Source: a virus (taxonomy: Duplodnaviria > Heunggongvirae > Uroviricota > Caudoviricetes). From it: 33,073 bases of DNA. Under the pieces are notes generated by a model. That model did not search any database. It had not been told where the DNA came from and saw nothing but the letters and a program-made list of their open reading frames with translations. Made by a program: the position numbers and the translations under genes. Positions 1 through 30,267 of this stretch are shown piece by piece. Positions within the stretch are counted from its first letter, which is position 1. The number at the start of each line of letters is the position of its first letter. Location: IMG/VR virus record IMGVR_UViG_2879765931_000003. The stretch is one strand, 5' to 3'.

Positions 1-969
1 TTACACATCATTAGTACCTTCCTTATTTTTTGACTGGGACAAATTTGGGACCGATGGGTTCAGGATCGAGTCTATTTGCCGTGCGTGTTCGGTAAGGTGA
101 TTAGGTGCAAGGTGAGCATATCGACGAACCATTTCGATAGACTCCCAGCCTCCCATTTCCTGTAACACTGACAACGGGACTCCGGCTTGAACCAGCCAAC
201 TTGCCCAGGTGTGTCTCAAGTCGTGAAATCTGAAATCATCAATACCAGCCCGTCTCAGCGCCGCTTTCCAGGCTGTGTTTGCGTCATACCGCATCTTCCT
301 TACTGTTGGCGCTTTCGTTCCGTCTGGTTTGGTACAGCTTTCCTTGTACACAAATACCCAACGGTGATGATTCCCGATTTGTTTTTTCAATACGCGACAT
401 GCAGTATCATTCAGCGCAACGCCAATTGCGCGGTTTGATTTACTCTCTTCCGGGTTTATCCATGCCACCCGGCGCTGCATATCTATTTGTTGCCATTCAA
501 GGTTGATGATGTTCGAGCGTCTTAAGCCTGTTGCCAGTGCAAATTCAACAACAGACTTTAATGGCTCCGGACATTCATCAATCAGCCTTTGTGCTTCATG
601 GGGCTCCAGCCAGCGGATCCGTTTATTCTTTGGTTGAGGCACTTTAATAATTGGTGCCTTATCCAGCATTTTCCATTCACGCTCTGCGGCTCTTAGTAGG
701 GCCTTTATAAATGAAAGATGCGTAGCCTTCGTTGCAACGGACGCTGGTTTTGGCGTGTATTCTGGAACAGGTTTCCCTTTTTTTCTGCATGCTTCTGCCC
801 TGAGTTTCCAGTTTTCCTCATGACGCCGGTTCGTCATTTTCTGCATTGCTGAATAAATTTTTGATTCAGTGATGTCTCTTAGTTGCATCCCTGCGAAATG
901 TTGAAGCCAGAATCCGATCCGGCTTTTGTCATCGTCCAGTGATTTCTTATGTGCTTTCTCTTCGAGCCA
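1..969 (-). pseudogene. int: Phage tyrosine integrase, copy A: C-terminal ~320 codons, with the 5' part severed by IS600
   Basis: ORF ends ...[18 protein letters not shown]...[23 protein letters not shown]...TNDV* with stop at 1-3; the R..H..R..Y catalytic region is typical of tyrosine recombinases. Near-identical to the int at 11513-13942. Reading frame runs into the IS600 end at 970. Confidence 0.85.
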
Positions 970-1012
970 TGAGGTGTACTGGCAATAGCGGACACTACCA
1001 TTTGTTCTTTTT

Positions 1013-1831
1013 TTAAGCAGCCATCTGATGATATTTTTCCCTGAAGGCAGCCGGGGAGATATTCCCCAGACGAGAGTGACGACGCTGACGATTGTAGAAA
1101 ATCTCAATGTATTCCCGTATTACTGAGATGGCTTCATCCCGGTTATTAAAACGATAGTGGCTCAGGCTCTCATTTTTCAGCGTTCCCCAGAAGCTTTCCA
1201 TCGGAGCGTTGTCGTAACAGTTACCTTTACGCGACATTGATGTTTTCAGACCAAACTGCTCCTGTATGACCCGGTAATCGTATGCGCAGTACTGTGAACC
1301 TCGATCAGAGTGGTGGATTAGCCCGGCAGGTGGGCGCTGGCTCCTGAGCGCCATAAACAGGGCTTTACCTGTCAGCTCTTTTGTCATGCGCTCTCCCATG
1401 GCGTAGCCGACAATTTCGCACGTATAAACATCTTTGATACCAGCGAGGTACAACCATCCCTCCTGTGTGGCAACATACGTCAGGTCCGCCACCCAGACCT
1501 GATTTGGTGCTGTAGGAGCGAACGTCTGGTTCAGCAGATTTGGCGCAACAGGCAGATTGTGGTTCGGGTTCGTAGTCGCTCTGAACTTGCGTTTCTGCTT
1601 ACAGCGTAGCCTCAGCTCCTTACGAAGACGTGCCAGTCGGTCACGACCAACGATGATGCCATTCTCTGCCAGCTCCGTCTGGAGCCGCCGGGTTCCATAT
1701 GTTTCGCGAGTGCGGATATGTGCCACCTTAATCTCCAGTTTTAGCCGCTCATCACTTTGTTTTCTGTCTGAGGGTTCATGCTGTACCCAGTTGTAATAAC
1801 CGCTCCTGGATACACCAAATACCTGACACAT
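1013..1831 (-). CDS. IS600 OrfB (DDE transposase catalytic component)
   Basis: 272 aa, HSDRGSQY...[17 protein letters not shown] motif region; downstream of orfA in -1 frame. Confidence 0.88.
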
Positions 1832-2233: not shown

Positions 2234-2746
2234 CTTTGCAGCGTGGTGGAGGCATCCGGTGCCAGCCTGGAGAAGGGGCGGCACGATCAGTTGCTTACCG
2301 CACTTCGCGCGCTGCTGTTAAGCCGCAAGAATCCGTTTGGCGATATCAAATCGGATGGCACGGTGAAAACGGCTCTCGAAAACCTTGGTTTGGGAGAAGC
2401 AGCTAAAAGGAATGTAGGTACAGGGGCGAATCAGATACCTGATATGAGCCTGTTCGCGTCAAGTAATACCGCAACGGCTGCTGCGCAAAAATTTCCGTCT
2501 GGATTAATTTTACAGTGCGGTCAGTTGAATGGCTCCCCTAATGTATCTTCAACATACGGGATGAGGTTCCCGATGACATTCTCAAGAGTCCTTGCTGTCA
2601 CAGTTACATTGAACGTTACTGGCGCGTCAGGGCAGCCGACTGTATCGGCGACAAATGTCCAGAACACTGGATTTGATATTACAGTGTCGCCCGGTTCAGG
2701 ATATGGTTCATCTGCTGATGCGTATTACATTGCAATGGGATATTAA
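2234..2746 (+). pseudogene. Side tail fibre protein, C-terminal fragment (N-terminus removed by IS600)
   Basis: ...[29 protein letters not shown]...[12 protein letters not shown]...[18 protein letters not shown] is the conserved C-terminal region of lambdoid/T-even-like tail fibres; in-frame open from the IS600 boundary. Confidence 0.7.
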
Positions 2747-2750
2747 CGAA

Positions 2751-3158
2751 ATGTCATATTTTTATTCTGCATCGACAAACGGATTTTATTCGACTGAATT
2801 TCACGGCACCAATATTCCTGATGATGCAGTGGAAATCTCGGAATCAGAGTGGAAAACACTGATTAATTCGCAGAGTGTAACAAAAATGATTACCTGTGGT
2901 GAGAATGGTCACCCTGTCATTGTTGACCGTCCTTCTCCAACACCAGAACAATTAGCCTTAATAAATAATGAAAAGAAATCTGCACTGATAGCAGAGGCAA
3001 CGAATGTAATAGCGCCGCTTCAGGATGCGGTTGATTTAGATATGGCAACAGATGATGAAACGAAACTGTTACTGGCATGGAAAAAATATCGCGCACTATT
3101 GATGCGTGTTGATATAAAAAATACAGAGTGGCCGAAAAAACCAGAGAGCAATCTATAA
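2751..3158 (+). CDS. tfa: Tail fibre assembly protein (Tfa-like chaperone)
   Basis: Starts MSYFYSASTNGFYSTEF..., the typical Tfa N-terminus, immediately after the fibre gene stop; 135 aa. Confidence 0.65.
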   Translation: MSYFYSASTNGFYSTEFHGTNIPDDAVEISESEWKTLINSQSVTKMITCGENGHPVIVDRPSPTPEQLALINNEKKSALIAEATNVIAPLQDAVDLDMATDDETKLLLAWKKYRALLMRVDIKNTEWPKKPESNL

Positions 3159-3326
3159 GAGAAAATTCGTTATTGGATGAAAAGCGAGACATCTAATTAT
3201 AACAGCATATGGTTTTTCTAATGATAGCTCCTTCAACTTTATAGTATCTCATATACTCTAGAATATAGCTCTAAATGAGGGTTTGTTGTATACGGCAACC
3301 ACTCCATTTTTATTCCTGATAGGGAT

Positions 3327-3352
3327 ATAACCCGTCGAAAAAGACGGGTTAT
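3327..3352. terminator. Putative hairpin between convergent tfa and gtrC
   Basis: ataacccgtc-gaaaaa-gacgggttat inverted repeat in the convergent intergenic region; no strong T-tract. Confidence 0.3.
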
Positions 3353-3391
3353 TCATTCGTTAGTGTGGTTTATATGGTAGGGGGCAATTTA

Positions 3392-4913
3392 CTATAGGTT
3401 AAGTTTTTTGTTAAATACTAATATTACTCTTCCTTCAAAGTTCAAAACTTCGTCAGGCTTACCTAATTGTTCTTGAATACCTGCAAGGCAGGATGTCATT
3501 TCTTTACATCGTTCAGGTTCGTTAGCTATGGAAACTGCTATAAACTGTCGCTCAGGAGCAGAATTGAACGCCTCCTTGCTATGCCAAGAAGCCAGTGTCT
3601 GTTGTCTCACGCCAGTAAAGTTAATTTTCCCCGAATCAGCATTAAAGAAAACAGGAGTTATCTGTATGTCCCCACCAGATAACCAATTTACAGTCATTGA
3701 CAAATCCCAAAAAGAGCCGTACCCATAATGGAGATTATTTTTTTTTAAAAAATCAATGTATGATTTAACAATCTTCTCCTGATCGTGTAATGGTGAAGCA
3801 TTATTTGTGTAAGATTTAATTGAACTGATCGAAAATAAAAATGCGATTAGATAAAATAATATCTTTGCTTTTGTTGATGTACCGATACAGCACAATATCA
3901 GTGCGAAACAGGTAACATTCATAAAGAAACGCATGCTAATATAATCAGGGGATTTATAGCTCAGTATGAATGATGAGACAATACCTGCGATAGATAATAA
4001 TGAAAATAACACAATATAAATACGGTATGTGTTTTTTTTTATTGTCCGATAAAACAAACCACGCAGATGTAATAATGGCAATGAACCAAATGACAAATGA
4101 GGCGTAAGATGTTGCGTTATTGTCGACAACTAATAAATTAAGACTTTTTCCTATTAACAGAATGCACCATTTTGCATTTAAAATCATATCATTGAGTGAT
4201 ACAATTTCAAATTGGTGGGGAGGTATGTTAAGTAGATTTTGCAATACATTGGAAAGAGAGATTAAACATGCAAATAGTATTAATGCAGTATGCTTAAATA
4301 ATTTTTTATCCCATACAGAGAATAAAAAGTAAGATATTAATAGTGGAATAAGAAATGCAGCTGTAAACCACGGATCGGATACGCTGGAAAATAATGCTGT
4401 CAAACTTAAGAGGAGAGTGATAAATATATTTTTATACTGTATGTTGAAAACAGATATAAGCAAGCATAAAAAGCCGAAAGCGTTTGTTGAATTATGAGAA
4501 AAAGGATGTGATACAAAACCATAAGTGTATGAAAAATATGGTATTAGAGATAGAAGTATAATAGAAAATAAAGCAGGGGTAAACCCGAATGCCTTACGTA
4601 GCGTTAACATCGCTGCTATTACTATAGCAATAGAGAAAACTGCAGTTGATAATCTTAATGCTACTAAGCCATCATCACCTAACAGCATATAAAATAAAAA
4701 GTTAATTGGGTAAACGGTGAAATACCAATTATCCACGGTTGGTTTCCAGTCGTGGATTGATGATATACCATTCTCTAAAATATGCCTCCATACAATTGGG
4801 CTGTTAGCAACATCCGGTTCAACTGGAAAGTATCTGGTAGTCAACCAAGTTATTAGGAGTGCTGATAAAGCCAATAATATTTTTAATGCTGATTGTTTAA
4901 TACATATGCTCAT
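3392..4913 (-). pseudogene. GtrC-family type-specific O-antigen glucosyltransferase, read in two frames that overlap at a T9 (coding-strand A9) run at 4032-4040
   Basis: Polytopic membrane protein directly downstream of gtrA-gtrB in the usual gtrABC arrangement. ORF 3954-4913 (319 aa) and ORF 3392-4129 (245 aa) both cross the A9 run in different frames; a +/-1 change in the run would give one ~506-aa protein. Very AT-rich. Confidence 0.7.
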
Positions 4914-4915
4914 GG

Positions 4916-5836
4916 TTATTTTCTACCTTTCTTCAAAATATACTTAGGTCTTGATTTTGTTTCTAAGTAAATTCTACCTATATATTCACCGAGAACACCA
5001 ATCCCGATCAGTTGCACTCCACCCAAGAAAAGTATTGATACAAGCAGGGAGGGATACCCGCGTACTGGGTTACCAAAGACAAGGGTGTCTATAATCATCC
5101 ATGCACCATATAAAAATGAAATGCTTGCAACAAACAAGCCTATATAAGTCCATACGCGAAGAGGAAAGGTTGAAAAACTTGTGATACCTTCCAGTGCCAG
5201 ATTCCATAATTTCCAGCCATTAAATTTTGAGATGCCAGCAACACGCTCTGCGCGTACATATTCAACGACATCCGTCTGACCACCCACCCAGCTCAGTATG
5301 CCTTTCATGAAAAGATTGCGCTCAGGCAACAGTTTAATGTTCTCCACAACCTCACGAGACATGAGTCGAAAATCTCCGACATTTTCCTCGATCTTTGGGG
5401 TGCTTATTTTGTTGTGTAATTTATAGAACCACTCAGCTGTCTTACGTTTCAGTCGTCCATCAGTTGAGCGGTCTGAACGTTTAGCAAGCACCATCTCAGC
5501 ACCTGCCTGCCACTTTTCAATAAGATGAGGGATAACCTCAATTGGGTCTTGCAGGTCGACATCAATAGGAATTACAGCATCGCCGCTTGCATGGTCTAAC
5601 CCTGCAAATAAGGCTGGTTCTTTACCAAAGTTGCGTGTAAATGACAGCGGAACAACTAGCGGGTCTGAAACAGCCAGCGCGTTAATAATTGACTCTGTGG
5701 CATCTTTACTTCCGTCATTTATGAATACAATTTCTACTTCATATGGCTTCAACTCTTGGAATTCACGTACCGTTTTATAGAAAACAGGTATCGCTTCTTC
5801 TTCATTGAAGACAGGAACGACAAGAGATATTTTCAT
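4916..5836 (-). CDS. gtrB: Bactoprenol glucosyltransferase GtrB (GT2 family)
   Basis: 306 aa; [20 protein letters not shown]...DGSKD...D.D..D GT2 motifs and C-terminal TM segments; 2 bp upstream of gtrC. Confidence 0.92.
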
Positions 5837-6195
5837 TTCGCATCCCTAAAGACAATGAACTTTGAATAGACGAAACCGCACACCAGACTGATGGCGGAGA
5901 AGGTGATAAGAGTGACTATTGGAGGAAGTGAGCATTTATCAGCTGCCCAACCAACAATCACACTCAATATTCCCATAAATCCCACGTATAACATGTAGCG
6001 CATCGCTGTAGTCGATGCTTTGAATGTGAATCTTGCATTCGCGAAGAAGCTAAAGCTCACAGCCACTACGAAACCTGTGAAGTTTGCCAGAGCCTGACTG
6101 GTATGTGCGGTATAGATACATACACCAAAAACCACCCAGTGTATAAGTGTGTTCAGCACACCTATAGATGTGTACTTTACAAATAACTTTAACAT
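5833..6195 (-). CDS. gtrA: GtrA flippase-like small membrane protein
   Basis: 120 aa, [25 protein letters not shown]...[11 protein letters not shown]; overlaps the gtrB start by 4 nt. Confidence 0.92.
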
Positions 6196-6267
6196 TTATT
6201 TAATCAATGAGCTCTGAAAGGCATGAAGTCTATCATCCAAGTCTCAATTGATCGATACTTGCTATGT

Positions 6268-6320
6268 CTGATGAGACAAAACTGAGACACATAAGGCCTC
6301 ACAATGGCTTGCAAGGCTTT
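6268..6320 (-). promoter_or_regulatory. Conserved upstream block shared with the acyltransferase locus (candidate promoter/leader of the conversion cassette)
   Basis: Reverse complement AAAGCCTTGCAAGCCATTGTGAGGCCTTATGTGTCTCAGTTTTGTCTCATCAG matches 14168-14220 at 43 of 53 positions; both lie about 73-125 nt upstream of the start codon. Confidence 0.45.
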
Positions 6321-6396
6321 ACATGTTTTGATGTGGTGGGACGTGTGAGCGCAGTGTTGATGGGATAATCCTTTGAATTACAAGCGGATTCTTATA

Positions 6397-6442
6397 ATTC
6401 GTAATGCGAAGGTCGTAGGTTCGACTCCTATTATCGGCACCA
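6397..6442 (+). other. Phage attachment-site core: 46-nt 3' end of tRNA-Thr (thrW-type), not an intact tRNA
   Basis: ATTCGTAATGCGAAGGTCGTAGGTTCGACTCCTATTATCGGCACCA is the anticodon-loop-to-CCA portion of tRNA-Thr(CGU) as I recall it; the upstream sequence does not continue the tRNA. Confidence 0.8.
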
Positions 6443-6456
6443 TTTAAATCAATAAG

Positions 6457-6815
6457 TTACCTCGCATTTAAGTAAACTACGTTCTCCTCTTGTGCCGTAT
6501 TTGTGCCATTGCGACTTATAATCGCATCGATTTTGCTCGCGTGCTCGGTGAGATGCCCGGCTGAAAGGTGGGCGTATCTTTGAACCATTTCGAGAGTTTC
6601 CCATCCTCCCATCTCTTTAAGCGCAAGAAGAGAGACACCGGACTGAACCAGCCAGCTTGCCCAGGTATGCCTCAGGTCATGGAAGCGGAAGTTGCTAATG
6701 CCTGCCCGCTTTAACGCTCCCTTCCATGCCTTGTTGCTGTCGGTTCTCATCTTCCTTACCGCTGCTGTTTTTGTTCCGTCGCTTCGGTAGGCAGGTTTGG
6801 TGTGGACAAACACCC
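6457..6815 (-). pseudogene. int: Phage tyrosine integrase, C-terminal fragment (a third, divergent int), 5'-truncated by IS600
   Basis: ...[55 protein letters not shown]...; stop lies 14 nt from the att core, the same geometry as int copy B. Confidence 0.8.
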
Positions 6816-6858
6816 TGAGGTGTACTGGCAATAGCGGACACTACCATTTGTTCTTTTT

Positions 6859-7677
6859 TTAAGCAGCCATCTGATGATATTTTTCCCTGAAGGCAGCCGG
6901 GGAGATATTCCCCAGACGAGAGTGACGACGCTGACGATTGTAGAAAATCTCAATGTATTCCCGTATTACTGAGATGGCTTCATCCCGGTTATTAAAACGA
7001 TAGTGGCTCAGGCTCTCATTTTTCAGCGTTCCCCAGAAGCTTTCCATCGGAGCGTTGTCGTAACAGTTACCTTTACGCGACATTGATGTTTTCAGACCAA
7101 ACTGCTCCTGTATGACCCGGTAATCGTATGCGCAGTACTGTGAACCTCGATCAGAGTGGTGGATTAGCCCGGCAGGTGGGCGCTGGCTCCTGAGCGCCAT
7201 AAACAGGGCTTTACCTGTCAGCTCTTTTGTCATGCGCTCTCCCATGGCGTAGCCGACAATTTCGCACGTATAAACATCTTTGATGCCAGCGAGGTACAAC
7301 CATCCCTCCTGTGTGGCAACATACGTCAGGTCCGCCACCCAGACCTGATTTGGTGCTGTAGGAGCGAACGTCTGGTTCAGCAGATTTGGCGCAACTGGCA
7401 GATTGTGGTTCGGGTTCGTAGTCGCTCTGAACTTGCGTTTCTGCTTACAGCGTAGCCTCAGCTCCTTACGAAGACGTGCCAGTCGGTCACGACCAACGAT
7501 GATGCCATTCTCTGCCAGCTCCGTCTGGAGCCGCCGGGTTCCATATGTTTCGCGAGTGCGGATATGTGCCACCTTAATCTCCGGTTTTAGCCGCTCATCA
7601 CTTTGTTTTCTGTCTGAGGGTTCATGCTGTACCCAGTTGTAATAACCGCTCCTGGATACACCAAATACCTGACACAT
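6859..7677 (-). CDS. IS600 OrfB
   Basis: 272 aa DDE transposase. Confidence 0.88.
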   Translation of the reverse strand: MCQVFGVSRSGYYNWVQHEPSDRKQSDERLKPEIKVAHIRTRETYGTRRLQTELAENGIIVGRDRLARLRKELRLRCKQKRKFRATTNPNHNLPVAPNLLNQTFAPTAPNQVWVADLTYVATQEGWLYLAGIKDVYTCEIVGYAMGERMTKELTGKALFMALRSQRPPAGLIHHSDRGSQYCAYDYRVIQEQFGLKTSMSRKGNCYDNAPMESFWGTLKNESLSHYRFNNRDEAISVIREYIEIFYNRQRRHSRLGNISPAAFREKYHQMAA

Positions 7678-7712
7678 CGCTTCAATGGGAAATTGTTGTC
7701 GCCATTGTTCGA

Positions 7713-8015
7713 TTAACGCGTATTTTTCAGCGACTCCTGTGCAAAATACGCTGTTGCTTTTTTTAATATATCTCGCTCAAGGCGAGCTTCATTTAACGCC
7801 TTACGCAGTTGCAGAATTTCAGATTCCAGTTCAGCCAGCGTGCGGGAACCAGGAGTACCGAGCCCTTTTCTGGCGGCGGTAACCCATTGTCCTAAAGTGC
7901 CTTCAGGAAGAGATAATCGGGAAGCGCCTTCACTGATCGAAAGTTGATTTTCAAGAACCGTTCTGACAGCTTCGGCTTTGAACTCTTTAGAGTAACGTTG
8001 GGTTTTTCTGCTCAT
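7713..8015 (-). CDS. IS600 OrfA
   Basis: 100 aa, near-identical to the other copies. Confidence 0.88.
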   Translation of the reverse strand: MSRKTQRYSKEFKAEAVRTVLENQLSISEGASRLSLPEGTLGQWVTAARKGLGTPGSRTLAELESEILQLRKALNEARLERDILKKATAYFAQESLKNTR

Positions 8016-8177
8016 TATTAGCTCCTTCTGATGCCATTCTATTTCAGGAAGGAGTGTCCGTTAAACTCAGGCTACCTCAGACGTCCCGTATGATGGATAT
8101 GAAATCAAGACAATCACACATCCTGAACCGCCCCGGGAATCCTGGAGACTAAACTTCCTGAGAAAGAGGTAAACAGG

Positions 8178-8500
8178 ATGACTAAAAATACTCGTTTTTC
8201 CCCCGAAGTCCGTCAACGGGCAGTCCGTATGGTTCTGGAAAGTCAGGGCGAATATGACTCACAATGGGCGACAATTTGTTCCATTGCCCCAAAGATTGGC
8301 TGTACGCCGGAGACTCTGCGTGTCTGGGTTCGCCAGCATGAGCGGGATACCGGGGGCGGTGATGGAGGGCTCACCACCGCTGAACGTCAGCGTCTGAAAG
8401 AGCTGGAGCGTGAAAATCGTGAACTGCGCCGCAGTAACGATATCCTTCGCCAGGCTTCCGCTTATTTTGCGAAGGCGGAGTTCGACCGCCTCTGGAAAAA

Positions 8501-8504
<4 letters not shown>
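8178..8504 (+). CDS. IS629-like OrfA
   Basis: 108 aa HTH/leucine-zipper OrfA of the IS3 family. Confidence 0.82.
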
Positions 8505-9387
<883 letters not shown>

Positions 9388-9429
9388 GTTCACAGATAAA
9401 ACACTCTCCAGGAAACCCGGGGCGGTTCA

Positions 9430-9730
9430 GAAAGTAAATGAAACAGATGCTGAATACCTGGTGCGTAAATTCGATGAGCTTGAAGCTAAATGTGCAGCAC
9501 AGGAAAACAAAGTAATACCAGTGTCAACTGAACTGCCACCAGCAAATGAAAGTGTTTTGTTATTCGATGCTAACGGAGAAGGCTGGCTAATTGGCTGGCG
9601 TTCTCTCTGGTACACCTGGGGACAAAAAGAAACCGGAGAATGGCAGTGGACATTTCAGGTCGGGGACCTTGAAAACGTCAATATCACTCACTGGGCAGTA
9701 ATGCCAAAAGCACCGGAGGCTGGAGCATAA
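9430..9730 (+). pseudogene. Phage early-region protein, DUF551-like C-terminal fragment (5' end removed by IS629)
   Basis: ...LLFDANGEGWLIGWRSLWYTWGQKETGEWQW...ITHWAVMPKAPE has the Trp-rich pattern I associate with DUF551; no start codon after the IS boundary. Confidence 0.5.
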
Positions 9731-10035
9731 TGACCACTTTTACCGACAAAGAACTGATTAAAGAAATTAAAGAGCGTATCAGCAGCCTTGACGTGCGAGA
9801 CGATATTGAGCGCCGTGCTTATGAAATCGCACTCCTATCTCTGGAAGTAGAACCAGATGAACGCGAAGCTTATGAATTATTCATGGAAAAGCGTTTTGGT
9901 GACTTAGTAGATCGTCGGAGAGCAAAAAACGGCGATAACGAATACATGGCATGGGATATGACTCTCGGTTGGATCGTCTGGCAGCAACGAGCTGGTATCC
10001 ATTTCTCAACAATGTCACAGCAAGAGGTGAAATAA
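9730..10035 (+). CDS. Hypothetical phage early (ea-region) protein
   Basis: 101-aa ORF, start overlaps the upstream stop (TAATG), same direction as xis and int. Confidence 0.45.
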   Translation: MTTFTDKELIKEIKERISSLDVRDDIERRAYEIALLSLEVEPDEREAYELFMEKRFGDLVDRRRAKNGDNEYMAWDMTLGWIVWQQRAGIHFSTMSQQEVK

Positions 10036-10092
10036 TGGAGCCATACAGCCTCACACTCGATGAGGCCTGTCATTTTCTCAAGATTGAAGTGG

Positions 10093-11296
<1,204 letters not shown>

Positions 11297-12294
11297 CTCT
11301 GTTCAGGTGGCCAAATTCAGTGTGCCACTTCAGATATCCAGACCGACTGCCATTAACTGGATACGCACAGGGCGTCTTCAGGCAACACGCAAAGATCCCA
11401 CTAAGAATAAATCTCCTTACCTCACAACACGACAAGCCTGCATTGCGGCTCTTCAGTCTCCGCTGCATACTGTCCAGGTGAGCGCGGGTGATGGCATAAC
11501 AGAGGAAAGAAAATGTCACTCTTCCGCAGAGGTGAAATATGGTACGCCAGTTTCACATTGCCGAACGGTAAAAGATTTAAACAGTCTCTTGGAACAAAGG
11601 ACAAAAGGCAGGCGACAGAACTCCATGACAAGCTAAAGGCTGAAGCATGGCGGGTCAGCAAACTTGGTGAAATACCTGATATAACGTTCGAGGAAGCGTG
11701 TGTCAGGTGGCTTGAAGAGAAAGCACATAAAAAATCACTGGACGATGACAAAAGCCGGATCGGATTCTGGCTTCAACATTTCGCAGGAATACAACTAAGA
11801 GACATTACTGAATCAAAAATTTATTCAGCAATGCAGAAAATGACGAACCGGCGTCATGAGGAAAACTGGAAACTCAGGGCAGAATCATGCAGAAAAAAAG
11901 GGAAACCTGTTCCAGAATACACGCCAAAACCAGCGTCCGTTGCAACGAAGGCTACGCATCTTTCATTTATAAAGGCCCTACTAAGAGCCGCAGAGCGTGA
12001 ATGGAAAATGCTGGATAAGGCACCAATTATTAAAGTGCCTCAACCAAAGAATAAACGGATCCGCTGGCTGGAGCCCCATGAAGCACAAAGGCTGATTGAT
12101 GAATGTCCGGAGCCATTAAAGTCTGTTGTTGAATTTGCACTGGCAACAGGCTTAAGACGCTCGAACATCATCAACCTTGAATGGCAACAAATAGATATGC
12201 AGCGCCGGGTGGCATGGATAAACCCGGAAGTGAGGTAGCCTGAGTTTAACGGACACTCCTTCCTGAAATAGAATGGCATCAGAAGGAGCTAATA

Positions 12295-12597
12295 ATGAGC
12301 AGAAAAACCCGACGTTACTCTAAAGAGTTCAAAGCCGAAGCTGTCAGAACGGTTCTTGAAAATCAACTTTCGATCAGTGAAGACGCTTCCCGATTATTCC
12401 TTCCTGAAGGCACTTTAGGACAATGGGTTACCGCCGCCAGAAAAGGGCTCGGTACTCCTGGTTCCCGCACGGTGGCTGAACTGGAATCTGAAATTCTGCA
12501 ACTGCGTAAGGCGTTAAATGAAGCTCGCCTTGAGCGAGATATATTAAAAAAAGCAACAGCGTATTTTGCACAGGAGTCGCTGAAAAATACGCGTTAA
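12295..12597 (+). CDS. IS600 OrfA
   Basis: 100 aa. Confidence 0.88.
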   Translation: MSRKTRRYSKEFKAEAVRTVLENQLSISEDASRLFLPEGTLGQWVTAARKGLGTPGSRTVAELESEILQLRKALNEARLERDILKKATAYFAQESLKNTR

Positions 12598-12632
12598 TCG
12601 AACAATGGCGACAACAATTTCCCATTGAAGCG

Positions 12633-13451
12633 ATGTGTCAGGTATTTGGTGTATCCAGGAGCGGTTATTACAACTGGGTACAGCATGAACCCTCAGACAG
12701 AAAACAAAGTGATGAGCGGCTAACACTGGAGATTAAGGTGGCACATATCCGCACTCGCGAAACATATGGAACCCGGCGGCTCCAGACGGAGCTGGCAGAG
12801 AATGGCATCATCGTTGGTCGTGACCGACTGGCACGTCTTCGTAAGGAGCTAAGGCTACGCTGTAAGCAGAAACGCAAGTTCAGAGCGACTACGAACCCGA
12901 ACCACAATCTGCCAGTTGCGCCAAATCTGCTGAACCAGACGTTCGCTCCTACAGCACCAAATCAGGTCTGGGTGGCGGACCTGACGTATGTTGCCACACA
13001 GGAGGGATGGTTGTACCTCGCTGGCATCAAAGATGTTTATACGTGTGAAATTGTCGGCTACGCCATGGGAGAGCGCATGACAAAAGAGCTGACAGGTAAA
13101 GCCCTGTTTATGGCGCTCAGGAGCCAGCGCCCACCTGCCGGGCTAATCCACCACTCTGATCGAGGTTCACAGTACTGCGCATACGATTACCGGGTCATAC
13201 AGGAGCAGTTTGGTCTGAAAACATCAATGTCGCGTAAAGGTAACTGTTACGACAACGCTCCGATGGAAAGCTTCTGGGGAACGCTGAAAAATGAGAGCCT
13301 GAGCCACTATCGTTTTAATAACCGGGATGAAGCCATCTCAGTAATACGGGAATACATTGAGATTTTCTACAATCGTCAGCGTCGTCACTCTCGTCTGGGG
13401 AATATCTCCCCGGCAGCCTTCAGGGAAAAATATCATCAGATGGCTGCTTAA
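12633..13451 (+). CDS. IS600 OrfB
   Basis: 272 aa. Confidence 0.88.
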   Translation: MCQVFGVSRSGYYNWVQHEPSDRKQSDERLTLEIKVAHIRTRETYGTRRLQTELAENGIIVGRDRLARLRKELRLRCKQKRKFRATTNPNHNLPVAPNLLNQTFAPTAPNQVWVADLTYVATQEGWLYLAGIKDVYTCEIVGYAMGERMTKELTGKALFMALRSQRPPAGLIHHSDRGSQYCAYDYRVIQEQFGLKTSMSRKGNCYDNAPMESFWGTLKNESLSHYRFNNRDEAISVIREYIEIFYNRQRRHSRLGNISPAAFREKYHQMAA

Positions 13452-13956
13452 AAAAGAACAAATGGTAGTGTCCGCTATTGCCAGTACACCTCAAAGAGAG
13501 TAAATCAAACCGCGCAATTGGCGTTGCGCTGAATGATACTGCATGTCGCGTATTGAAAAAACAAATCGGAAATCATCACCGTTGGGTATTTGTGTACAAG
13601 GAAAGCTGTACCAAACCAGACGGAACGAAAGCGCCAACAGTAAGGAAGATGCGGTATGACGCAAACACAGCCTGGAAAGCGGCGCTGAGACGGGCTGGTA
13701 TTGATGATTTCAGATTTCACGACTTGAGACACACCTGGGCAAGTTGGCTGGTTCAAGCCGGAGTCCCGTTATCAGTGTTACAGGAAATGGGAGGCTGGGA
13801 GTCTATCGAAATGGTTCGTCGATATGCTCACCTCGCACCTAATCACCTTACCGAACACGCACGGCAAATAGACTTGATTCTGAACCCATCGGTCCCAAAT
13901 TTGTCCCAGTCAAGAAATAAGGAAGGTACTAATGATGTGTAACTTATTGATTTTAA

Positions 13957-14002
13957 TGGTGCCGATAATAGGAGTCGAACCTACGACCTTCGCATTACGA
14001 AT
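13957..14002 (-). other. Second phage attachment-site core: 46-nt tRNA-Thr 3' end in inverse orientation, not an intact tRNA
   Basis: TGGTGCCGATAATAGGAGTCGAACCTACGACCTTCGCATTACGAAT is the reverse complement of the core at 6397-6442; the 14-nt spacer to the int stop is nearly identical at both sites. Confidence 0.8.
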
Positions 14003-14167
14003 CTGTAGCACCAATCATAACTATCTGTTTTAGCAAGCATTAACCGCATTCACTAAGCTATAGTTGATGACACAAACAGAAAGTTGATGCATGATGTTGC
14101 CATATATATGTCACAAATACGGCACAACGATCTTCAAACATATAGCCACACATTCACAGAAGAGCAC

Positions 14168-14220
14168 AAAGCCTTGCAATCCAGTGCAAAGCTTGGTGTG
14201 TCTCCGTTTTGTTTCATCAG
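14168..14220 (+). promoter_or_regulatory. Conserved upstream block (paralogue of 6268-6320), candidate promoter/leader of the acyltransferase gene
   Basis: AAAGCCTTGCAATCCAGTGCAAAGCTTGGTGTGTCTCCGTTTTGTTTCATCAG, 71-123 nt upstream of the start codon. Confidence 0.45.
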
Positions 14221-14290
14221 TTACACATAACTATATGATCATTAACTAAAAGTCAGTATACTTGGAGAAATTTTAATTGCGTAATAGAGC

Positions 14291-15463
14291 ATGCATATGA
14301 TTGAAATTAACAGTTTATTATTAATAACATCCGTGATATTGATGTCGTTATTAGCTGTGGGGTTATTTGATAAAATTTCCCCAATAAATCTTGTTGAGCA
14401 CGGCAGGAATAATCAAATAGATGGAATGCGGGGGTTCTTAGCAATTTTCGTGCTTATTCATCACGCAGCAATTTGGAATGGATACTTGTCATCTGGAGTA
14501 TGGGAAGCACCTTCATCAAATCTGTTAGCAAATTTAGGCCAAGTTGGTGTGTCATTCTTTTTTATGATTACTGGTTATCTGTTCTTTTCAAAGATTATCT
14601 CTGGAGATCAGGACTGGACAAGGCTTTATGTATCAAGATTACTACGATTAACCCCAATGTTCATAGTTAGCCTATGTCTCATTTTTATCATTGTAGGTTT
14701 TAAGTCTGGATGGAGAATGCAGGTATCCACAGAAGAGCTTTTTGTGTCAATAATGAAGTGGTTGCCATTCACTGCGCTAGGTATGCCGAACATTAATGAC
14801 GTAAAAGATTCATTTACTATCAATGCCGCTGTAACATGGACACTTGTATATGAATGGTTCTTTTATTTTTCTCTTCCGGTAATTTCCGCGCTCATAAAAA
14901 GAAAAGTCAGTATTTACATGGTTATGATTAGCGCAATATCGCTATTTGTTTTCATTTTATTTTTCAGTAAAATACACATAGCATCATTTCTTTTTGGGCT
15001 CCTGGCATTTTTGCTAAATAAATCAAAGATAGTCAATGGAATTGCCAAAGCAAAAGTAACACCAATTATAATAACTGCGATAATGGTTTTTGAAATGACG
15101 TATTTCAAAACAACTTACGCACCGCTACCACTGATTCTTTGTGGAATAACATTTATCATTATCGCATCAGGTTGTGATTTGTATGGAATATTAAGATTAA
15201 ATATAACCAGAAAGCTAGGAGAAACTACCTACAGCGTTTACCTTCTGCATGGGATATTCCTTTATTGCCTAATGACGTGGATTATTCCTAATAATTACAC
15301 TGAAAATACATTTATCATACTGGTAAGCACAACTGCATTTCTTATTACGTTCACATCATGCCTAACTTTTAAATTAATAGAGACGCCATTCATCAAATTA
15401 ACAAAACAAACCACAACTTTAGTAAAAGAATTAATACCCACATTAACAAACAACAATCAATAA
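14291..15463 (+). CDS. Acyltransferase family 3 integral membrane protein; candidate O-antigen O-acetyltransferase (Oac-like) conversion gene
   Basis: 390 aa, multi-TM; N-terminal ...DGMRGFLAIFVLIHH... and ...SFFFMITGYLF... motifs of acyltransferase-3 enzymes; occupies the cargo slot between att/int and the tailspike; AT-rich. The exact start (14291 or 14297) is uncertain. Confidence 0.78.
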   Translation: MHMIEINSLLLITSVILMSLLAVGLFDKISPINLVEHGRNNQIDGMRGFLAIFVLIHHAAIWNGYLSSGVWEAPSSNLLANLGQVGVSFFFMITGYLFFSKIISGDQDWTRLYVSRLLRLTPMFIVSLCLIFIIVGFKSGWRMQVSTEELFVSIMKWLPFTALGMPNINDVKDSFTINAAVTWTLVYEWFFYFSLPVISALIKRKVSIYMVMISAISLFVFILFFSKIHIASFLFGLLAFLLNKSKIVNGIAKAKVTPIIITAIMVFEMTYFKTTYAPLPLILCGITFIIIASGCDLYGILRLNITRKLGETTYSVYLLHGIFLYCLMTWIIPNNYTENTFIILVSTTAFLITFTSCLTFKLIETPFIKLTKQTTTLVKELIPTLTNNNQ

Positions 15464-15476
15464 ACAATAAACATAA

Positions 15477-15508
15477 GCCGCCCTACATATATGTCCAAAT
15501 GGGGCGGC
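15477..15508. terminator. Putative bidirectional hairpin between convergent acyltransferase and tailspike fragment
   Basis: GCCGCCC-(17 nt)-GGGGCGGC followed by an AT-rich stretch. Confidence 0.3.
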
Positions 15509-15516
15509 GAATGTAT

Positions 15517-16224
15517 TTATATTAGTCTGGTAATGCTAAATGCAAACGAACTGGAGATTCCTGCCCCGCTAAGCGTATTGCGCAGGGTCACCCTAAATGT
15601 ATCTACGCCAATATAAGTAACATCACAACTAACTGAATCAGGCGCAGATATAGGTGTTATCTGCACAATATAACCGCTAGCAACTGCTGCGAGCGGATGA
15701 GAAAAGCTAACATCATACACACCTGTAGAAACCACGTTAACCGATGAAACACCAGTAGCAACGTCGATACTACCATTGGCGTTAATTTTTCCCGAGCGTG
15801 TGACTGACAATGCAGAAGCCGATGTTACCTTACTGGTTGTTTCTGTAAAAACACACCCAATGTCAACTACCTCGCAATTAGCTCCTGTTATCCAGTATGG
15901 TCGTTCTGCACTTGGCTGATAATCCCCTGCGCTCTGGAACGTTGTGCCGTTGAGTATGACTGTAACTTTTCCCCCACCTGAGCTTGTTACTTGAATATTC
16001 GTGTGCGTGTATCTTGCACTGCTCACGCGATGAAAATTTCCACCGTTTATAACCACAGTTACAGGGCGCGTCCCAGTATTATCTATAGCAAGGTCTGCCC
16101 CCCCGGCATTAGCCTCAAAGTATGGGTTGTTTAATACCAAAGCGCACGAACCGTTAAGGCCATTTATAGCTAATTGCGCACCACCTGTACTGGAATCCCC
16201 CTGAGTACCATTTCCTTCACAAGT
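15517..16224 (-). pseudogene. Tailspike / tail-fibre receptor-binding protein, C-terminal ~235-aa fragment (N-terminus removed by IS600)
   Basis: Reading frame open from the IS600 boundary to the stop at 15517; Gly/Ser/Thr/Asn-rich beta-strand-like repeats; position downstream of the ejection genes as for P22 gene 9. Confidence 0.5.
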
Positions 16225-16266
16225 TGAGGTGTACTGGCAATAGCGGACACTACCATTTGTTCTTTT

Positions 16267-17085
16267 TTAAGCAGCCATCTGATGATATTTTTCCCTGAAG
16301 GCAGCCGGGGAGATATTCCCCAGACGAGAGTGACGACGCTGACGATTGTAGAAAATCTCAATGTATTCCCGTATTACTGAGATGGCTTCATCCCGGTTAT
16401 TAAAACGATAGTGGCTCAGGCTCTCATTTTTCAGCGTTCCCCAGAAGCTTTCCATCGGAGCGTTGTCGTAACAGTTACCTTTACGCGACATTGATGTTTT
16501 CAGACCAAACTGCTCCTGTATGACCCGGTAATCGTATGCGCAGTACTGTGAACCTCGATCAGAGTGGTGGATTAGCCCGGCAGGTGGGCGCTGGCTCCTG
16601 AGCGCCATAAACAGGGCTTTACCTGTCAGCTCTTTTGTCATGCGCTCTCCCATGGCGTAGCCGACAATTTCGCACGTATAAACATCTTTGATGCCAGCGA
16701 GGTACAACCATCCCTCCTGTGTGGCAACATACGTCAGGTCCGCCACCCAGACCTGATTTGGTGCTGTAGGAGCGAACGTCTGGTTCAGCAGATTTGGCGC
16801 AACTGGCAGATTGTGGTTCGGGTTCGTAGTCGCTCTGAACTTGCGTTTCTGCTTACAGCGTAGCCTCAGCTCCTTACGAAGACGTGCCAGTCGGTCACGA
16901 CCAACGATGATGCCATTCTCTGCCAGCTCCGTCTGGAGCCGCCGGGTTCCATATGTTTCGCGAGTGCGGATATGTGCCACCTTAATCTCCGGTTTTAGCC
17001 GCTCATCACTTTGTTTTCTGTCTGAGGGTTCATGCTGTACCCAGTTGTAATAACCGCTCCTGGATACACCAAATACCTGACACAT
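16267..17085 (-). CDS. IS600 OrfB
   Basis: 272 aa. Confidence 0.88.
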   Translation of the reverse strand: MCQVFGVSRSGYYNWVQHEPSDRKQSDERLKPEIKVAHIRTRETYGTRRLQTELAENGIIVGRDRLARLRKELRLRCKQKRKFRATTNPNHNLPVAPNLLNQTFAPTAPNQVWVADLTYVATQEGWLYLAGIKDVYTCEIVGYAMGERMTKELTGKALFMALRSQRPPAGLIHHSDRGSQYCAYDYRVIQEQFGLKTSMSRKGNCYDNAPMESFWGTLKNESLSHYRFNNRDEAISVIREYIEIFYNRQRRHSRLGNISPAAFREKYHQMAA

Positions 17086-17448
17086 CGCTTCAATGGGAAA
17101 TTGTTGTCGCCATTGTTCGATTAACGCGTATTTTTCAGCGACTCCTGTGCAAAATACGCTGTTGCTTTTTTTAATATATCTCGCTCAAGGCGAGCTTCAT
17201 TTAACGCCTTACGCAGTTGCAGAATTTCAGATTCCAGTTCAGCCAGCGTGCGGGAACCAGGAGTACCGAGCCCTTTTCTGGCGGCGGTAACCCATTGTCC
17301 TAAAGTGCCTTCAGGAAGAGATAATCGGGAAGCGCCTTCACTGATCGAAAGTTGATTTTCAAGAACCGTTCTGACAGCTTCGGCTTTGAACTCTTTAGAG
17401 TAACGTTGAACCGCCCCGGGTTTCCTGGAGAGTGTTTTATCTGTGAAC

Positions 17449-18331
<883 letters not shown>

Positions 18332-18335
<4 letters not shown>

Positions 18336-18658
18336 TTTTTCCAGAGGCGGTCGAACTCCGCCTTCGCAAAATAAGCGGAAGCCTGGCGAAGGATATCGTT
18401 ACTGCGGCGCAGTTCACGATTTTCACGCTCCAGCTCTTTCAGACGCTGACGTTCAGCGGTGGTGAGCCCTCCATCACCGCCCCCGGTATCCCGCTCATGC
18501 TGGCGAACCCAGACACGCAGAGTCTCCGGCGTACAGCCAATCTTTGGGGCAATGGAACAAATTGTCGCCCATTGTGAGTCATATTCGCCCTGACTTTCCA
18601 GAACCATACGGACTGCCCGTTGACGGACTTCGGGGGAAAAACGAGTATTTTTAGTCAT
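18332..18658 (-). CDS. IS629-like OrfA
   Basis: 108 aa, identical to copy 1. Confidence 0.82.
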
Positions 18659-18783
18659 CCTGTTTACCTCTTTCTCAGGAAGTTTAGTCTCCAGGATTCC
18701 CGGGGCGGTTCACGTTGGGTTTTTCTGCTCATTATTAGCTCCTTCTGATGCCATTCTATTTCAGGAAGGAGTGTCCGTTAAAC

Positions 18784-20514
18784 TCAGGCTACCTCAACTC
18801 TCTTTTCAATAGGGTCAAGGTTTTTCATCCCGCCAAGATCTTCTGCCACCTGTTTGAGCATTGACCTTGTTGATGGCGCATCAATTTTTGCACCTGCAGG
18901 CATCGCCTTTTCAACATTGCGATAAAGCTGGTCGCTTCGTTTCATCAGCGCAGACATTCTTCCATTGACCGTATCAATAAACTTGTCGCTCATACCAAGA
19001 GCATCTTTTGCACCGGAAACGCGATCAATTATCTCACCCGCGCCCTGTGCTAGCTGCCTGATTGCTTCATTTTCCTGCACCTGTAGAGCAGAACCCGCAC
19101 GGGACTTGATTGCTTGCTCAACTGCCTTGTATTGCTCGTTCCCGGAAAAGTGTGAAGGGAGTAATGAATCAACATTAAGCCTTTCAGCAGACTCCAGAAC
19201 TTCAGCCTGAGGATTGATATCTAGTTCATCAAGCGATGAAGCGAGATTTGGCCTTTTTTGTGCTGCTACTGTGCGAACGACTTCCTCTGGGTTCTTCGTC
19301 GCAGGCGTCATTGGTACACCTTGTGCTACTCTTGCCTCTGCGGCATGAACCGCAGGATTTGTTGCTGCAGCGGCATCACCGGAGAATGGTGATGTTTCTG
19401 TTGGCGCAGTGGTCGCTCTCTGTGCAGATGTTTTATTGCCACTAATTATATTTGATGCACCACGAACACCACGGGTAACGCCATTTATCAGGCCATGCGT
19501 AGCAATGCTAAGTCCGGCATTAATAGCGGCATTTTCGGCAAAATCACCCCGTTGATTCGCCGCGTCAGCGAGAGAACCAATGACCATGTTTCCAGCTACA
19601 CCTGCTCCAGGAACAAGATAACCGCCTATTGACTCTCCAGCTTGCGCGTAGGGGTCTGTCGGTCTGTCTACTGGACGATAAACATCATCCAATACTTTTG
19701 GCCCCCCAAGCCCCTGACTGATTGCATTAATCAGACTTGCGCCACCCTGCAATACGTCAAATGGTATGTTTACCAGACCACGACCAGCCTGTTCTGCAAT
19801 TTGCCCTGCACTTTGACCACCAGTGAGCCAATCGCCAGCTTGTTGCATCAATGATGGTTCTTCCCGTGTTGGTGCATTATTGGCCTGATTAACTGTTTGT
19901 TGCTGAACAGGTTTCGGTGCGACAGAACTTACGGGTTGAGGTGGCTGCTGACTGGCTGCCTGCTGCTCAATCTGAGCAAATGGATTATTTGGGTCTGACT
20001 GCACACCTGATGCCGATACTTGTTCGGATGACTGTACTTCCAGTTGTGCAAACGGGTTGTTAGGGTCTTGCTGAGGATGTACCTTTGCAGAGGTGGCGCG
20101 CTGTTCGACTGTTGAGTCTGTCACCGGGTCACCAGCCCATTGAGCAAAGCGATCATCAACGTAACCGCGGCCTTCAGGTCCTGGCGTATATTCACCACGC
20201 TTTGCCTTCATAACGTTGCCGGGACCGTCGTGATAAGCCTGAAGAGCGTCACGCCAGTTACCAAACTGCTGGTACATCTTTGCCAGATAGCGCGCGCCAG
20301 CGTCAGCCTGATATTCGGGGTTTTGCATTTGCTCATCGGTATAACCCATATCACGCCATGTCCCAGGCATGACCTGAGTCAATCCTACAGCCCCGGCGGA
20401 GCTTACTGCGGCAGGGTTGTAAGAAGACTCCTTGGCACCCAGTGCAGTCATCAACCCTTCTGGCACACCGTAACGTGCGCCAGCCTGCTCTAACAAATCA
20501 CGGTAATTAGCCAT
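18784..20514 (-). CDS. Ejection (injection) protein at the P22 gp16 position, with an N-terminal lytic-transglycosylase (SLT)-like domain; C-terminus replaced by the IS600 end
   Basis: 576 aa; ...[28 protein letters not shown]...[11 protein letters not shown]... resembles SLT motifs; the last codons and the stop lie within the IS600 terminal repeat. Confidence 0.6.
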
Positions 20515-21846: not shown

Positions 21847-21855
21847 GATTACCCC

Positions 21856-22548
21856 TTAAAACAACGAGCCAAGCAATCCGATACCAGCACCAATACCAGC
21901 GCCCCAAGGCGTTGATGTTCCCAAAAGGCTGGCAAGACCTGCACCGGCAATCGCACCAGACGTGCCACCGCTAATTGCAGTCTGAAGACTTGATGGTTTA
22001 TTGGCATTAGCAGCGGCAAGAGCTGCGCTTTGCTGTGCAATGCTGCTCATGTTGTTGGCGTACGTCTGCCCGGCGTTTGCCTGACCTTGCAGCGCACCAA
22101 GCCCAACGTTTGCCAGATTGTTGTAATTGCTCATCTGATTTGATAACCAAGACTGACCGAGTGTCGGCGCGATCGTAGCCAGTTGATTGCTTGTGGCTGT
22201 CGAACCAAGTCCACCCGTCGCCTCCGCAGCAGCAAGACTCTGGTAACGCGCCTGCCCTGCAAGGTCTTTATACTGCTTAGAGTTGTAATACTGATTAAGT
22301 GCCTGCCCCTGACCTTCTAAACTGGAAAGGTTCTGAAGCTGGTTAACATACTGCTCCGCAAGAGGCGTGAACGGAGCAAGGTTTTTCATGATCGTCTGCC
22401 ACTGCTGATTTTGCAGGTCTGCAGCATACTTCTGGGCTTCTGCTGCATACTTTGCGCTTTTATCAGAACTGCCACCTTTCCCGCCTTTTTCAGGGCAATA
22501 AGGTTCCTCGCCGCGCAGTTTTCTGCCCAGCTTAAATGCATATAACAT
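21856..22548 (-). CDS. Ejection protein, P22 gp7-like
   Basis: 230 aa, MLYAFKLGRKLRGEEPYCPEKGGKGGS..., Gly/Ala-rich C-terminal hydrophobic tail. Confidence 0.7.
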   Translation of the reverse strand: MLYAFKLGRKLRGEEPYCPEKGGKGGSSDKSAKYAAEAQKYAADLQNQQWQTIMKNLAPFTPLAEQYVNQLQNLSSLEGQGQALNQYYNSKQYKDLAGQARYQSLAAAEATGGLGSTATSNQLATIAPTLGQSWLSNQMSNYNNLANVGLGALQGQANAGQTYANNMSSIAQQSAALAAANANKPSSLQTAISGGTSGAIAGAGLASLLGTSTPWGAGIGAGIGLLGSLF

Positions 22549-22550
22549 GG

Positions 22551-28231: not shown

Positions 28232-28244
28232 GATTAACTCTCTC

Positions 28245-30231: not shown

Positions 30232-30267
30232 TGAAGTGGCACACTGAATTTGGCCACCTGAACAGAG

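Follow-up and report, generated by a model that had tools for sequence, protein, structure and literature searches.

The integrases of phages P22, SfI, SfII, SfIV, SfV and phi458 are proteins of 387 amino acids that carry a PF00589 domain, and in each of these phages the same attP core begins 14 nt past the integrase stop codon. A core of 46 nt has been published as the att core of SfI, SfII, SfV, SfX and P22 (PMC3636060). Experimentally, SfI was shown to insert at the attL of an SfX prophage that was already in place, and in the resulting SfI + SfX tandem lysogens at thrW the gtrA arm is followed by the 46-bp core with the next integrase gene adjacent (PMC3306764). Decayed phages at this site have also been described. 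In the retrieved passages on the cryptic SfI/SHI-O locus of Shigella flexneri serotypes 1a, 1b and 1c (Y394, CP020753; PMC5596473, PMC7565858), thrW lies downstream of proA, next to an SfI remnant of ~5 kb, with oacB ~7 kb away and many transposase genes. According to these passages, the SfI remnant measures 5,612 bp in all 1b, all 1c and most 1a strains, with oacB/Sf101 remnants adjoining (PMC7565858), and the Y394 genome paper draws the region with 'integrase' arrows (PMC5596473). The same passages do not discuss the occurrence of two integrase alleles, the IS600 break points, a third integrase of the HK542 type or an empty-site proof. For serotype 2a, the account available through PMC4159516 mentions an SfII remnant together with oacB in a 'transposon-like structure' upstream of adrA (Wang et al., 2014).

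The DNA analysed here, a stretch of 33,073 nucleotides referred to as the window, is 100% identical (zero mismatches) to record CP026871.1 over the loci that were fetched, which cover window positions 1-25463. This record is the 4.49-Mb single-contig chromosome of assembly GCA_002950195.1, and the proteins of the locus bear Shigella flexneri names in public databases. On this chromosome proB-proA-thrW lie to the left of the window. The stop codon of an integrase gene (copy A) ends on position 1, and the intact tRNA-Thr gene thrW lies 14 nt beyond it. A tRNA scan within the window found none, thrW sitting just beyond its left edge. To the right of the window T6SS remnants are followed by dnaQ-rnhA. 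The placement of dnaQ-rnhA relative to proBA is presumably the reverse of the map order in E. coli K-12, and this reversal implies a larger inversion that has one of its ends in the prophage array. The best explanation is that the window covers the thrW side of the serotype-conversion (SHI-O) locus in an S. flexneri chromosome, at which decayed temperate phages are stacked; we would assign a probability of roughly 0.85 to this explanation as a whole. As far as the retrieved passages allow a comparison, it is the same locus, with essentially the same sequence, as that of the cryptic SfI/SHI-O strains, from which it differs by a frameshift of 1 nt in gtrI and by an extra IS911 in the xis gene of one of its prophages (prophage B). 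No fewer than three prophage remnants, rather than two, are present at the locus, and the finding is one of ordinary IS-driven prophage decay at the already described SHI-O/cryptic SfI + oacB locus.

The window contains four copies of IS600, two of IS629, two of IS911 and the 1-kb repeats formed by integrase genes. IS600 shows 99.6% identity over 1264 bp to the annotated IS600 of the S. flexneri virulence plasmids pCP301/pWR100. Its two open reading frames of 100 and 272 amino acids form an overlapping transposase pair and its ends read TGAGGT...ACCTCA, as expected of the IS3 family. Target duplications flank IS911-1 (GAT), IS629-2 (ACG) and IS600-B (AAG), which are therefore simple insertions. 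The other copies (IS600-A, IS600-2, IS629-1, IS600-4 and IS911-2) have no duplication and are candidate scars of rearrangement. When the 3-bp flanks of these copies were paired in search of partner junctions, no matches were obtained within the window.

The initial annotation had reported two near-identical integrase genes in inverted orientation, and a repeat search and a gapless alignment recovered both at the places given. The arms of the inverted repeat are 443-969 versus 11708-12234 (527 nt, 99%) and 1-458 versus 13485-13942 (458 nt, 98%). Alignment of the reverse complement of 1-969 with 11708-12230 joined to 13497-13942, a comparison that had been recommended, required no gaps and gave 12 mismatches in 969 positions (98.76% identity). 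Such an identity over ~1 kb is far beyond chance. Eight of the differences are synonymous and four alter the protein (from A to B: M93I, A125S, S366L and K379R). Of these, S366L and K379R correspond to the SILNPS/LILNPS and SKNK/SRNK differences that had been read directly from the translations. Over codons 66-387 both copies share 98.2-99.6% of their nucleotides with the int genes of SfI, SfII, SfIV, SfV and phi458. At five of the 12 differing sites (201, 219, 276, 294 and 1056) both alleles occur among these free phages; copy A is SfII-like and copy B SfIV/SfV-like at the first four, and copy B matches SfII at site 1056. The pN/pS ratio between the copies is 0.14, with P = 0.001 for four or fewer nonsynonymous among 12 changes. 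This indicates that A and B diverged under purifying selection in working genes, before their inactivation. The similarity ends at the boundary between int and the att core, and the flanks are unrelated (thrW at copy A versus an HK542-type arm at copy B, where an SfIV-type xis is found at the other end).

Two copies that are 98.8% identical, inverted and ~10.5 kb apart in an IS-rich, rearrangement-prone region could also have arisen by a recent inverted duplication of a single int within the chromosome, after which they would have diverged as pseudogenes. This is very improbable, as the pN/pS of 0.14 is unlike the drift of pseudogenes, the five sites show alleles that are present in independent phages, the exact B allele occurs uninterrupted in other isolates and the flanks differ beyond the int/att-core boundaries. 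In addition, the alleles are invariant in the other genomes that carry them (n = 10 for A and n = 4 for B). The earlier proposal that the copies represent two related prophages is thus upheld by the phage alleles, the pN/pS ratio, the empty-site allele, the type of the upstream region and the separate att cores. The 1.2% difference would then be allelic variation of the phage population that predates either break.

The 5' part of copy B (11513-12230, plus strand) comprises codons 1-239 and 1 nt (718 nt in all), and its 3' part (13497-13942, plus strand) runs from the rest of codon 240 to codon 387 and the stop codon. Between them lies IS600-B (12231-13493, plus strand), with the AAG duplication at 12228-12230 and 13494-13496. 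With 1263 bp this element is 1 bp short of the usual 1264 by the loss of a single A from an A-run, and it is the most diverged of the IS600 copies in the window. The break after nucleotide 718, inside codons 239/240, agrees with the earlier assignment of a cut near codon 240. Removal of IS600 (12231-13493) and one AAG yields an open frame of 387 codons, and the protein reconstructed in this way has its PF00589 domain at residues 184-355 (E = 6.5e-48), so that the insertion splits the catalytic domain. Other S. flexneri isolates encode the exact IntB protein in one uninterrupted piece of 387 aa, seen on 82 contigs, in contexts that match those of the window (orf29'-orf28-xis-int and int-oacB-tailspike'). 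In the comparison with genomes lacking the element, which the initial annotation had suggested, two loci (L038 and L039) had an int with 0 nt differences from the reconstructed copy B and a single AAG. This empty site proves IS600-B to be a simple insertion, one that came after the substitutions of copy B. The view that the 'private' substitutions of copy B represent decay after its inactivation was rejected, since the exact allele is uninterrupted in other isolates.

Upstream of copy B, IS629 copy 1 (8124-9429, plus strand; no duplication, TCC/GAA) cuts short orf29 of prophage B. It is followed by orf29', orf28 and the start of xis (9430-10084, plus strand), which are of the SfIV/SfV/SfII type, by IS911 copy 1 (10085-11332, minus strand), which is the simple insertion in xis, and by the 3' part of xis (11336-11636, plus strand), which overlaps the start of int. 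IS911 copy 1 is missing from three of the chromosomes with which the window was compared (L010, L017 and L019). With IS911 removed, the 920 nt on the 5' side of copy B, containing orf29', orf28 and xis, are colinear with SfIV (99.7%), SfV (99.5%) and SfII (99.1%), whereas the match to SfI is confined to the final 327 nt, which hold xis and the start of int, at 92%. Copy B would accordingly be the int of a separate SfIV/SfV-like prophage. This prophage would have entered by recombination at the att site that adjoins the oacB end of an Sf101-like podovirus remnant, and its int would have been inactivated later by simple transposition of IS600 into codons 239/240. The serotype 2a locus shares the order int, att core, oacB, tailspike' and IS600 with the window, and a 2a locus (L001) is colinear with positions 13494-18712 at 99.5% identity. 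In the 2a genomes, however, the int beside oacB is intact (387 aa) and is another allele, and IS600 is located 186 bp upstream of int, not inside it. The other end of that IS600 is adjoined by a tail-fibre gene.

Copy A (1-969, minus strand) retains codons 66-387 and the stop codon of a 387-aa tyrosine integrase of the P22/Sf family. The 65 N-terminal codons are missing together with the gene's own start and promoter, and the catalytic PF00589 domain is complete (E = 2.2e-47). The cut had been placed near codon 65; this position held, with the refinement that the gene begins exactly at codon 66 (TGG, Trp). Next to it lies IS600-A (970-2233, 1264 bp, minus strand), which bridges int codon 66 and the interior of a phage SfI tail-fibre gene. 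In agreement with the earlier reading, no target duplication is present (CCA precedes the element and CTT follows it) and the SfI fibre fragment starts directly behind the element, at 2234. The sequence from 2234 to 6460 is 99.9% identical to positions 17069-21294 of phage SfI and reaches from the C-terminus of the fibre through attP to the int stop codon. It includes the C-terminal fragment of the tail-fibre gene and the tail-fibre assembly gene (2234-3158, plus strand, 99.9% to SfI) and the SfI O-antigen glucosylation operon gtrI, gtrB and gtrA (3392-6195, minus strand), in which gtrI is frameshifted. The gtrA-gtrB-gtrI genes are thus found beside thrW with most of the phage gone, as in a cryptic SfI, and the remnant amounts to ~5.2 kb, compared with the 5,612 bp in the literature. 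Measured on SfI, whose genome is 38.4 kb long, the gap at copy A extends from int codon 65 to coordinate 17068, within the fibre gene, and amounts to ~33.2 kb. The lost interior comprises xis and the early, lysis, head and tail genes, and a single IS600 without duplication stands in its place. This bears out the proposed IS600-mediated rearrangement.

In the stack, copy A would be the int at the end closest to thrW (attL), and an IS600-associated deletion may have taken its first 65 codons and ~33 kb of prophage interior. The product of such a deletion would be int(66-387), IS600, tail-fibre', tfa, gtrI, gtrB and gtrA, in that order. It could have come about by recombination between two directly repeated copies of IS600 or, equally in keeping with the data, which do not separate the two routes, by intramolecular transposition of IS600 with deletion of adjacent DNA.

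The phage that carried gtrI may originally have had an int other than copy A. It is 99.5% identical to the int of SfIV and 98.9% to that of SfI, and it differs from the int of phi458 at 4, from that of SfIV at 5, from that of SfII at 7 and from that of SfI (strain 019) at 11 of the 969 sites. By contrast, the nearby stretch 2234-6460 is 99.9% identical to SfI, and the lack of a duplication at IS600-A means that its two flanks need not once have adjoined. Copy A and the gtrI block might thus stem from different prophages, the int of an older thrW-proximal prophage having been fused to the tail-fibre/gtrI end of a downstream SfI prophage with IS600-A as the fusion scar, in which case the locus once held at least four phages. 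We regard this as possible, though less likely. The Sf phages are mosaics whose int alleles recombine (the int of locus L002, for example, is intact and combines a B-like 5' part with an SfII-like 3' part). Given this mosaicism, an SfI relative carrying allele A is equally plausible, and the published read mapping, as far as the retrieved passages describe it, counts the ~5.6-kb remnant as SfI (PMC7565858). In contrast to the phage integrases, both chromosomal copies are disrupted, A by the absence of residues 1-65 and B by the split at 239/240. Neither is a potentially functional gene, copy A lacking codons 1-65 and its start and copy B being divided, and both are pseudogenes.

A third integrase was found between the SfI remnant and prophage B. 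The fragment (6457-6815, minus strand) consists of a C-terminal part with its stop codon and is of the HK542/mEpX2 type, with 99.2% identity to the HK542 int. It is cut by IS600-2 (6816-8079, minus strand), which has no duplication (CCC/GAC). The adjacent stretch of 44 nt (8080-8123) had no match in the Sf phage loci. The 46-bp core, which is the 3' end of thrW and agrees with the one published for SfI (PMC3636060), starts 14 nt past the stop codon of each of the three integrases. Core A is contained within the intact thrW to the left of the window, in the orientation of thrW and with the proA-proB side beyond. Core 3 (6397-6442, plus strand) is direct with respect to thrW, and here the gtrA-side arm of SfI is joined to the int arm of the HK542 type; this is the junction, at 6195-6460, that has exactly the order seen in the SfI + SfX tandem lysogens. 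Core B (13957-14002, minus strand) is inverted with respect to thrW and is followed by an HK542-type arm and then by oacB. The arm beyond core B is 98% identical to the non-int arm of an HK542-type attP. Both halves of such an attP are therefore present and lie apart, the int side at core 3 and the other arm at core B.

Beyond core B, the region 14003-16140 (plus strand) holds this attP arm, oacB (14291-15463, plus strand) and a C-terminal fragment of a tailspike gene (15517-16140, minus strand). The region is that of an Sf101-like podovirus, and its oacB/tailspike part is 91.5% identical to phage Sf101. Next comes IS600-4 (16225-18796, minus strand; no duplication, AGT/ACT), which is interrupted by IS629 copy 2 (17407-18712) with its ACG duplication. 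The P22-like structural genes from portal to gp16 (18784-30257) are colinear with the tailspike fragment across IS600-4. As far as the gene order goes, this fits a prophage that is here in its original context. The order tailspike', IS600 and gp16, being colinear with a P22-like phage, suggests a deletion in place over a transposition. IS600-2 and IS600-4 form direct repeats around the unit of copy B and oacB, with CCC and ACT as their outer flanks. A composite IS600 transposon carrying the oacB unit was considered and rejected, since there is no target duplication at these outer ends.

The resident, here called prophage X, would be an Sf101-like podovirus whose integration module is of the HK542 type. 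An SfI-type phage would integrate at the attL of prophage X and prophage B at its attR, from which a split HK542-type attP is expected. Each of the stacked phages would have entered through an integrase of the P22/Sf family acting at the 46-bp core that is common to thrW and attP. Hybrid arms are indeed found at core 3 and at core B, but core B is inverted relative to thrW. The tandem lysogens of SfI and SfX are intact and have all their elements in direct orientation, whereas the phages of the window are truncated by IS elements and have one att core inverted. As a pure tandem array of the Campbell type predicts direct cores, the segment containing copy B, oacB and the late genes of prophage X appears to have been flipped after integration. 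The model also predicts that the 5' part of the third int, the gtr end of prophage B and a fourth att core would lie outside the window.

The head-to-head layout of copies A and B would thus be a later by-product of an inversion of the B/oacB segment bounded by IS elements; like the order of integration and the mechanism of the deletion, this is inferred. The same layout is present in three other chromosomes (L010, L017 and L019). In CP130061.1 the two copies are direct and ~52 kb apart, and in LR213452.1 (L028) the gtrI-side locus runs from a truncated prophage B xis into IS911, a gene of 95 amino acids and IS2, with int B and oacB absent. The breakpoints of both these chromosomes are situated at remnants of IS911 or IS600, not in int or att. 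With regard to the endpoints of the inversion of core B, the pair of IS911 and the pair of IS629 were rejected as candidates because IS911-1 (GAT) and IS629-2 (ACG) have duplications of their own. IS911-1 also interrupts an otherwise colinear orf28-xis-int block, which speaks against it as an endpoint.

The inversion might instead have been brought about by recombination between the two int genes or by an Int-catalysed exchange between the att cores. At 527 + 458 nt the inverted repeats would suffice for RecA-mediated exchange, the att cores likewise face opposite ways and the copies are direct in CP130061.1. Chimeric A/B alleles were not seen in any genome examined, however, A and B keeping their private patterns of SNPs, and the location of the breakpoints of CP130061.1 and LR213452.1 at IS911 and IS600 remnants is not what this origin would give. 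With both integrases broken, Int-catalysed inversion from these genes is at present impossible. We consider int or att as the site of the exchange very unlikely and retain the IS-bounded inversion. For the same reasons there is very little to recommend the idea that the inverted int repeats or att cores constitute an invertible cassette that alters gtrI/oacB and so gives serotype variation: the orientation does vary between strains, but all the breakpoints are at IS elements and hybrid int alleles are lacking. We hold it to be just as improbable that the open reading frame that extends from the end of IS600 into copy A (1-1107, 368 aa) is residually active, although its product could be an integrase without the arm domain that has some DNA-cleaving or regulatory activity left.

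The excisionase of prophage B is broken as well, by IS911-1. From general knowledge of prophage domestication, the net effect would be the retention of gtrI and oacB in prophages that can neither excise nor kill the host. The locus illustrates how phage-borne O-antigen modification genes become fixed as serotype determinants in the S. flexneri chromosome: they are kept, and the integrase, excisionase and lytic functions are destroyed by IS elements. In IS-rich genomes, int pseudogenes that are nearly identical may stem from separate lysogenizations at one tRNA site, and they should not be merged or called duplications in pipelines for annotation or serotype prediction. Beyond annotation the observation has little significance.

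An arrangement with so many repeats, among them four IS600, two IS629, two IS911 and 1 kb of int, invites the suspicion of an assembly artefact, that is, of a mis-join or collapse across IS600 or the int repeats, which the initial annotation had named as the outcome that would undo its interpretation. The junctions of int A with IS600 and of IS600 with the fibre gene are 100% identical in 10 other complete chromosomes (L010, L012-L019 and L032), and both junctions of int B with IS600 are so in four others (L005, L010, L017 and L019). Two NCTC records are among the chromosomes with matching junctions. L019 is strain Y394, for which PacBio reads (N50 20.6 kb, 203x, Illumina-polished) span the whole 14-kb interval. 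As each of the four int/IS600 junctions recurs unchanged in complete chromosomes that were sequenced independently, a collapse is excluded as far as the junctions of other genomes, including Y394, can do so, and the chance that the arrangement is artefactual is negligible. A feature peculiar to this assembly that may be a sequencing error is in gtrI, where an extra A in the poly-A run 4032-4040 causes the 1-nt frameshift and is absent from every other genome compared. Either the serotype 1 determinant has truly been lost or the extra base is a homopolymer error; a genuine frameshift may affect the serotype prediction of this strain.

The integrase gene of prophage B, the SfIV/SfV-like prophage (int B, 11513-13942, plus strand, split by the insertion element IS600-B), was compared with the intact int of a 2a-type genome (8489-9652 in locus L002, CP106857.1). 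The first 718 nt of the intact gene are 100% identical to copy B, whereas the last 446 nt contain 11 differing sites, the same count being given by the SfII int. Judged by this distribution of differences, the L002 int is a recombinant allele. This suggests that int has been exchanged between resident and incoming phages.

Besides int A and int B, a third integrase fragment, of the HK542/mEpX2 type (99.2%), lies on the minus strand at 6457-6815, where it is cut short by IS600-2 (6816-8079), a copy without target duplication. The 46-bp att core of the tRNA gene thrW occurs three times, in thrW itself just left of the window, at 6397-6442 and at 13957-14002. The last of these adjoins int B and is an inverted copy; its far arm (14003-14212) corresponds to an HK542-type attP arm, and the int-side half belonging to that attP is found at 6457-6815. 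In all three cases an int gene of the window is adjoined by an IS600 end, and no shared target motif was seen at the IS600 ends abutting these three genes. The end of IS600-A (970-2233), which cuts int A (1-969, minus strand), contains a TTG start from which a 368-aa ORF (1-1107, minus strand) runs in frame into codons 66-387 of int A. As read from the sequence, this ORF is a candidate that in principle could supply an integrase without the N-terminal 65 residues.

Among the four IS600 copies, IS600-B (12231-13493) is the most diverged, with 8 private substitutions and three amino-acid changes in its OrfA. Its A-run is one base short, and the shorter run is common to IS600-4, which is identical to IS600-2 apart from the length of the A-run. 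IS600-4 (16225-18796) is a nested element, as it carries IS629 (17407-18712) surrounded by an ACG duplication. IS600-4 itself lacks a duplication and is bordered by a tailspike C-terminal fragment on one side and a truncated gp16 gene on the other. The 44 nt between IS600-2 and IS629-1 (8080-8123) had no match in the Sf phage loci examined. An IS911 copy (10085-11332) is inserted in xis of prophage B with a GAT duplication. Because it is missing from two otherwise colinear comparison loci (L010 and L017), its insertion is a recent, strain-level event.

A nearly complete P22/Sf6-like late operon occupies 18784-30257 on the minus strand and encodes portal, scaffold, coat, tail accessory and ejection proteins (gp7/gp20/gp16), the portal gene being truncated by IS911-2. 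The operon is colinear with the O-antigen-modifying gene oacB and the tailspike fragment. It probably represents the main part of an Sf101-like prophage with which oacB arrived.

The serotype 1 glucosyltransferase gene gtrI (minus strand) has a run of nine A residues at 4032-4040 (eight in other genomes), which splits the 506-aa enzyme into ORFs of 319 and 180/245 aa. Across the whole collection the 319-aa product is carried only by this genome. Either the serotype 1 determinant is really inactivated, or the ninth A is a homopolymer sequencing error.

To the right of the window, CP026871.1 continues with IS2, T6SS remnants, dnaQ, rnhA and gloB (L025 10345-20288). adrA, which comes after oacB both in CP130061.1 and in genomes of the 2a type, is not adjacent in this genome. 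On the E. coli K-12 map, the order relative to proBA-thrW is opposite to that of the IS2-to-gloB stretch. This reversal implies a larger inversion of the chromosome, one end of which lies in the prophage array.
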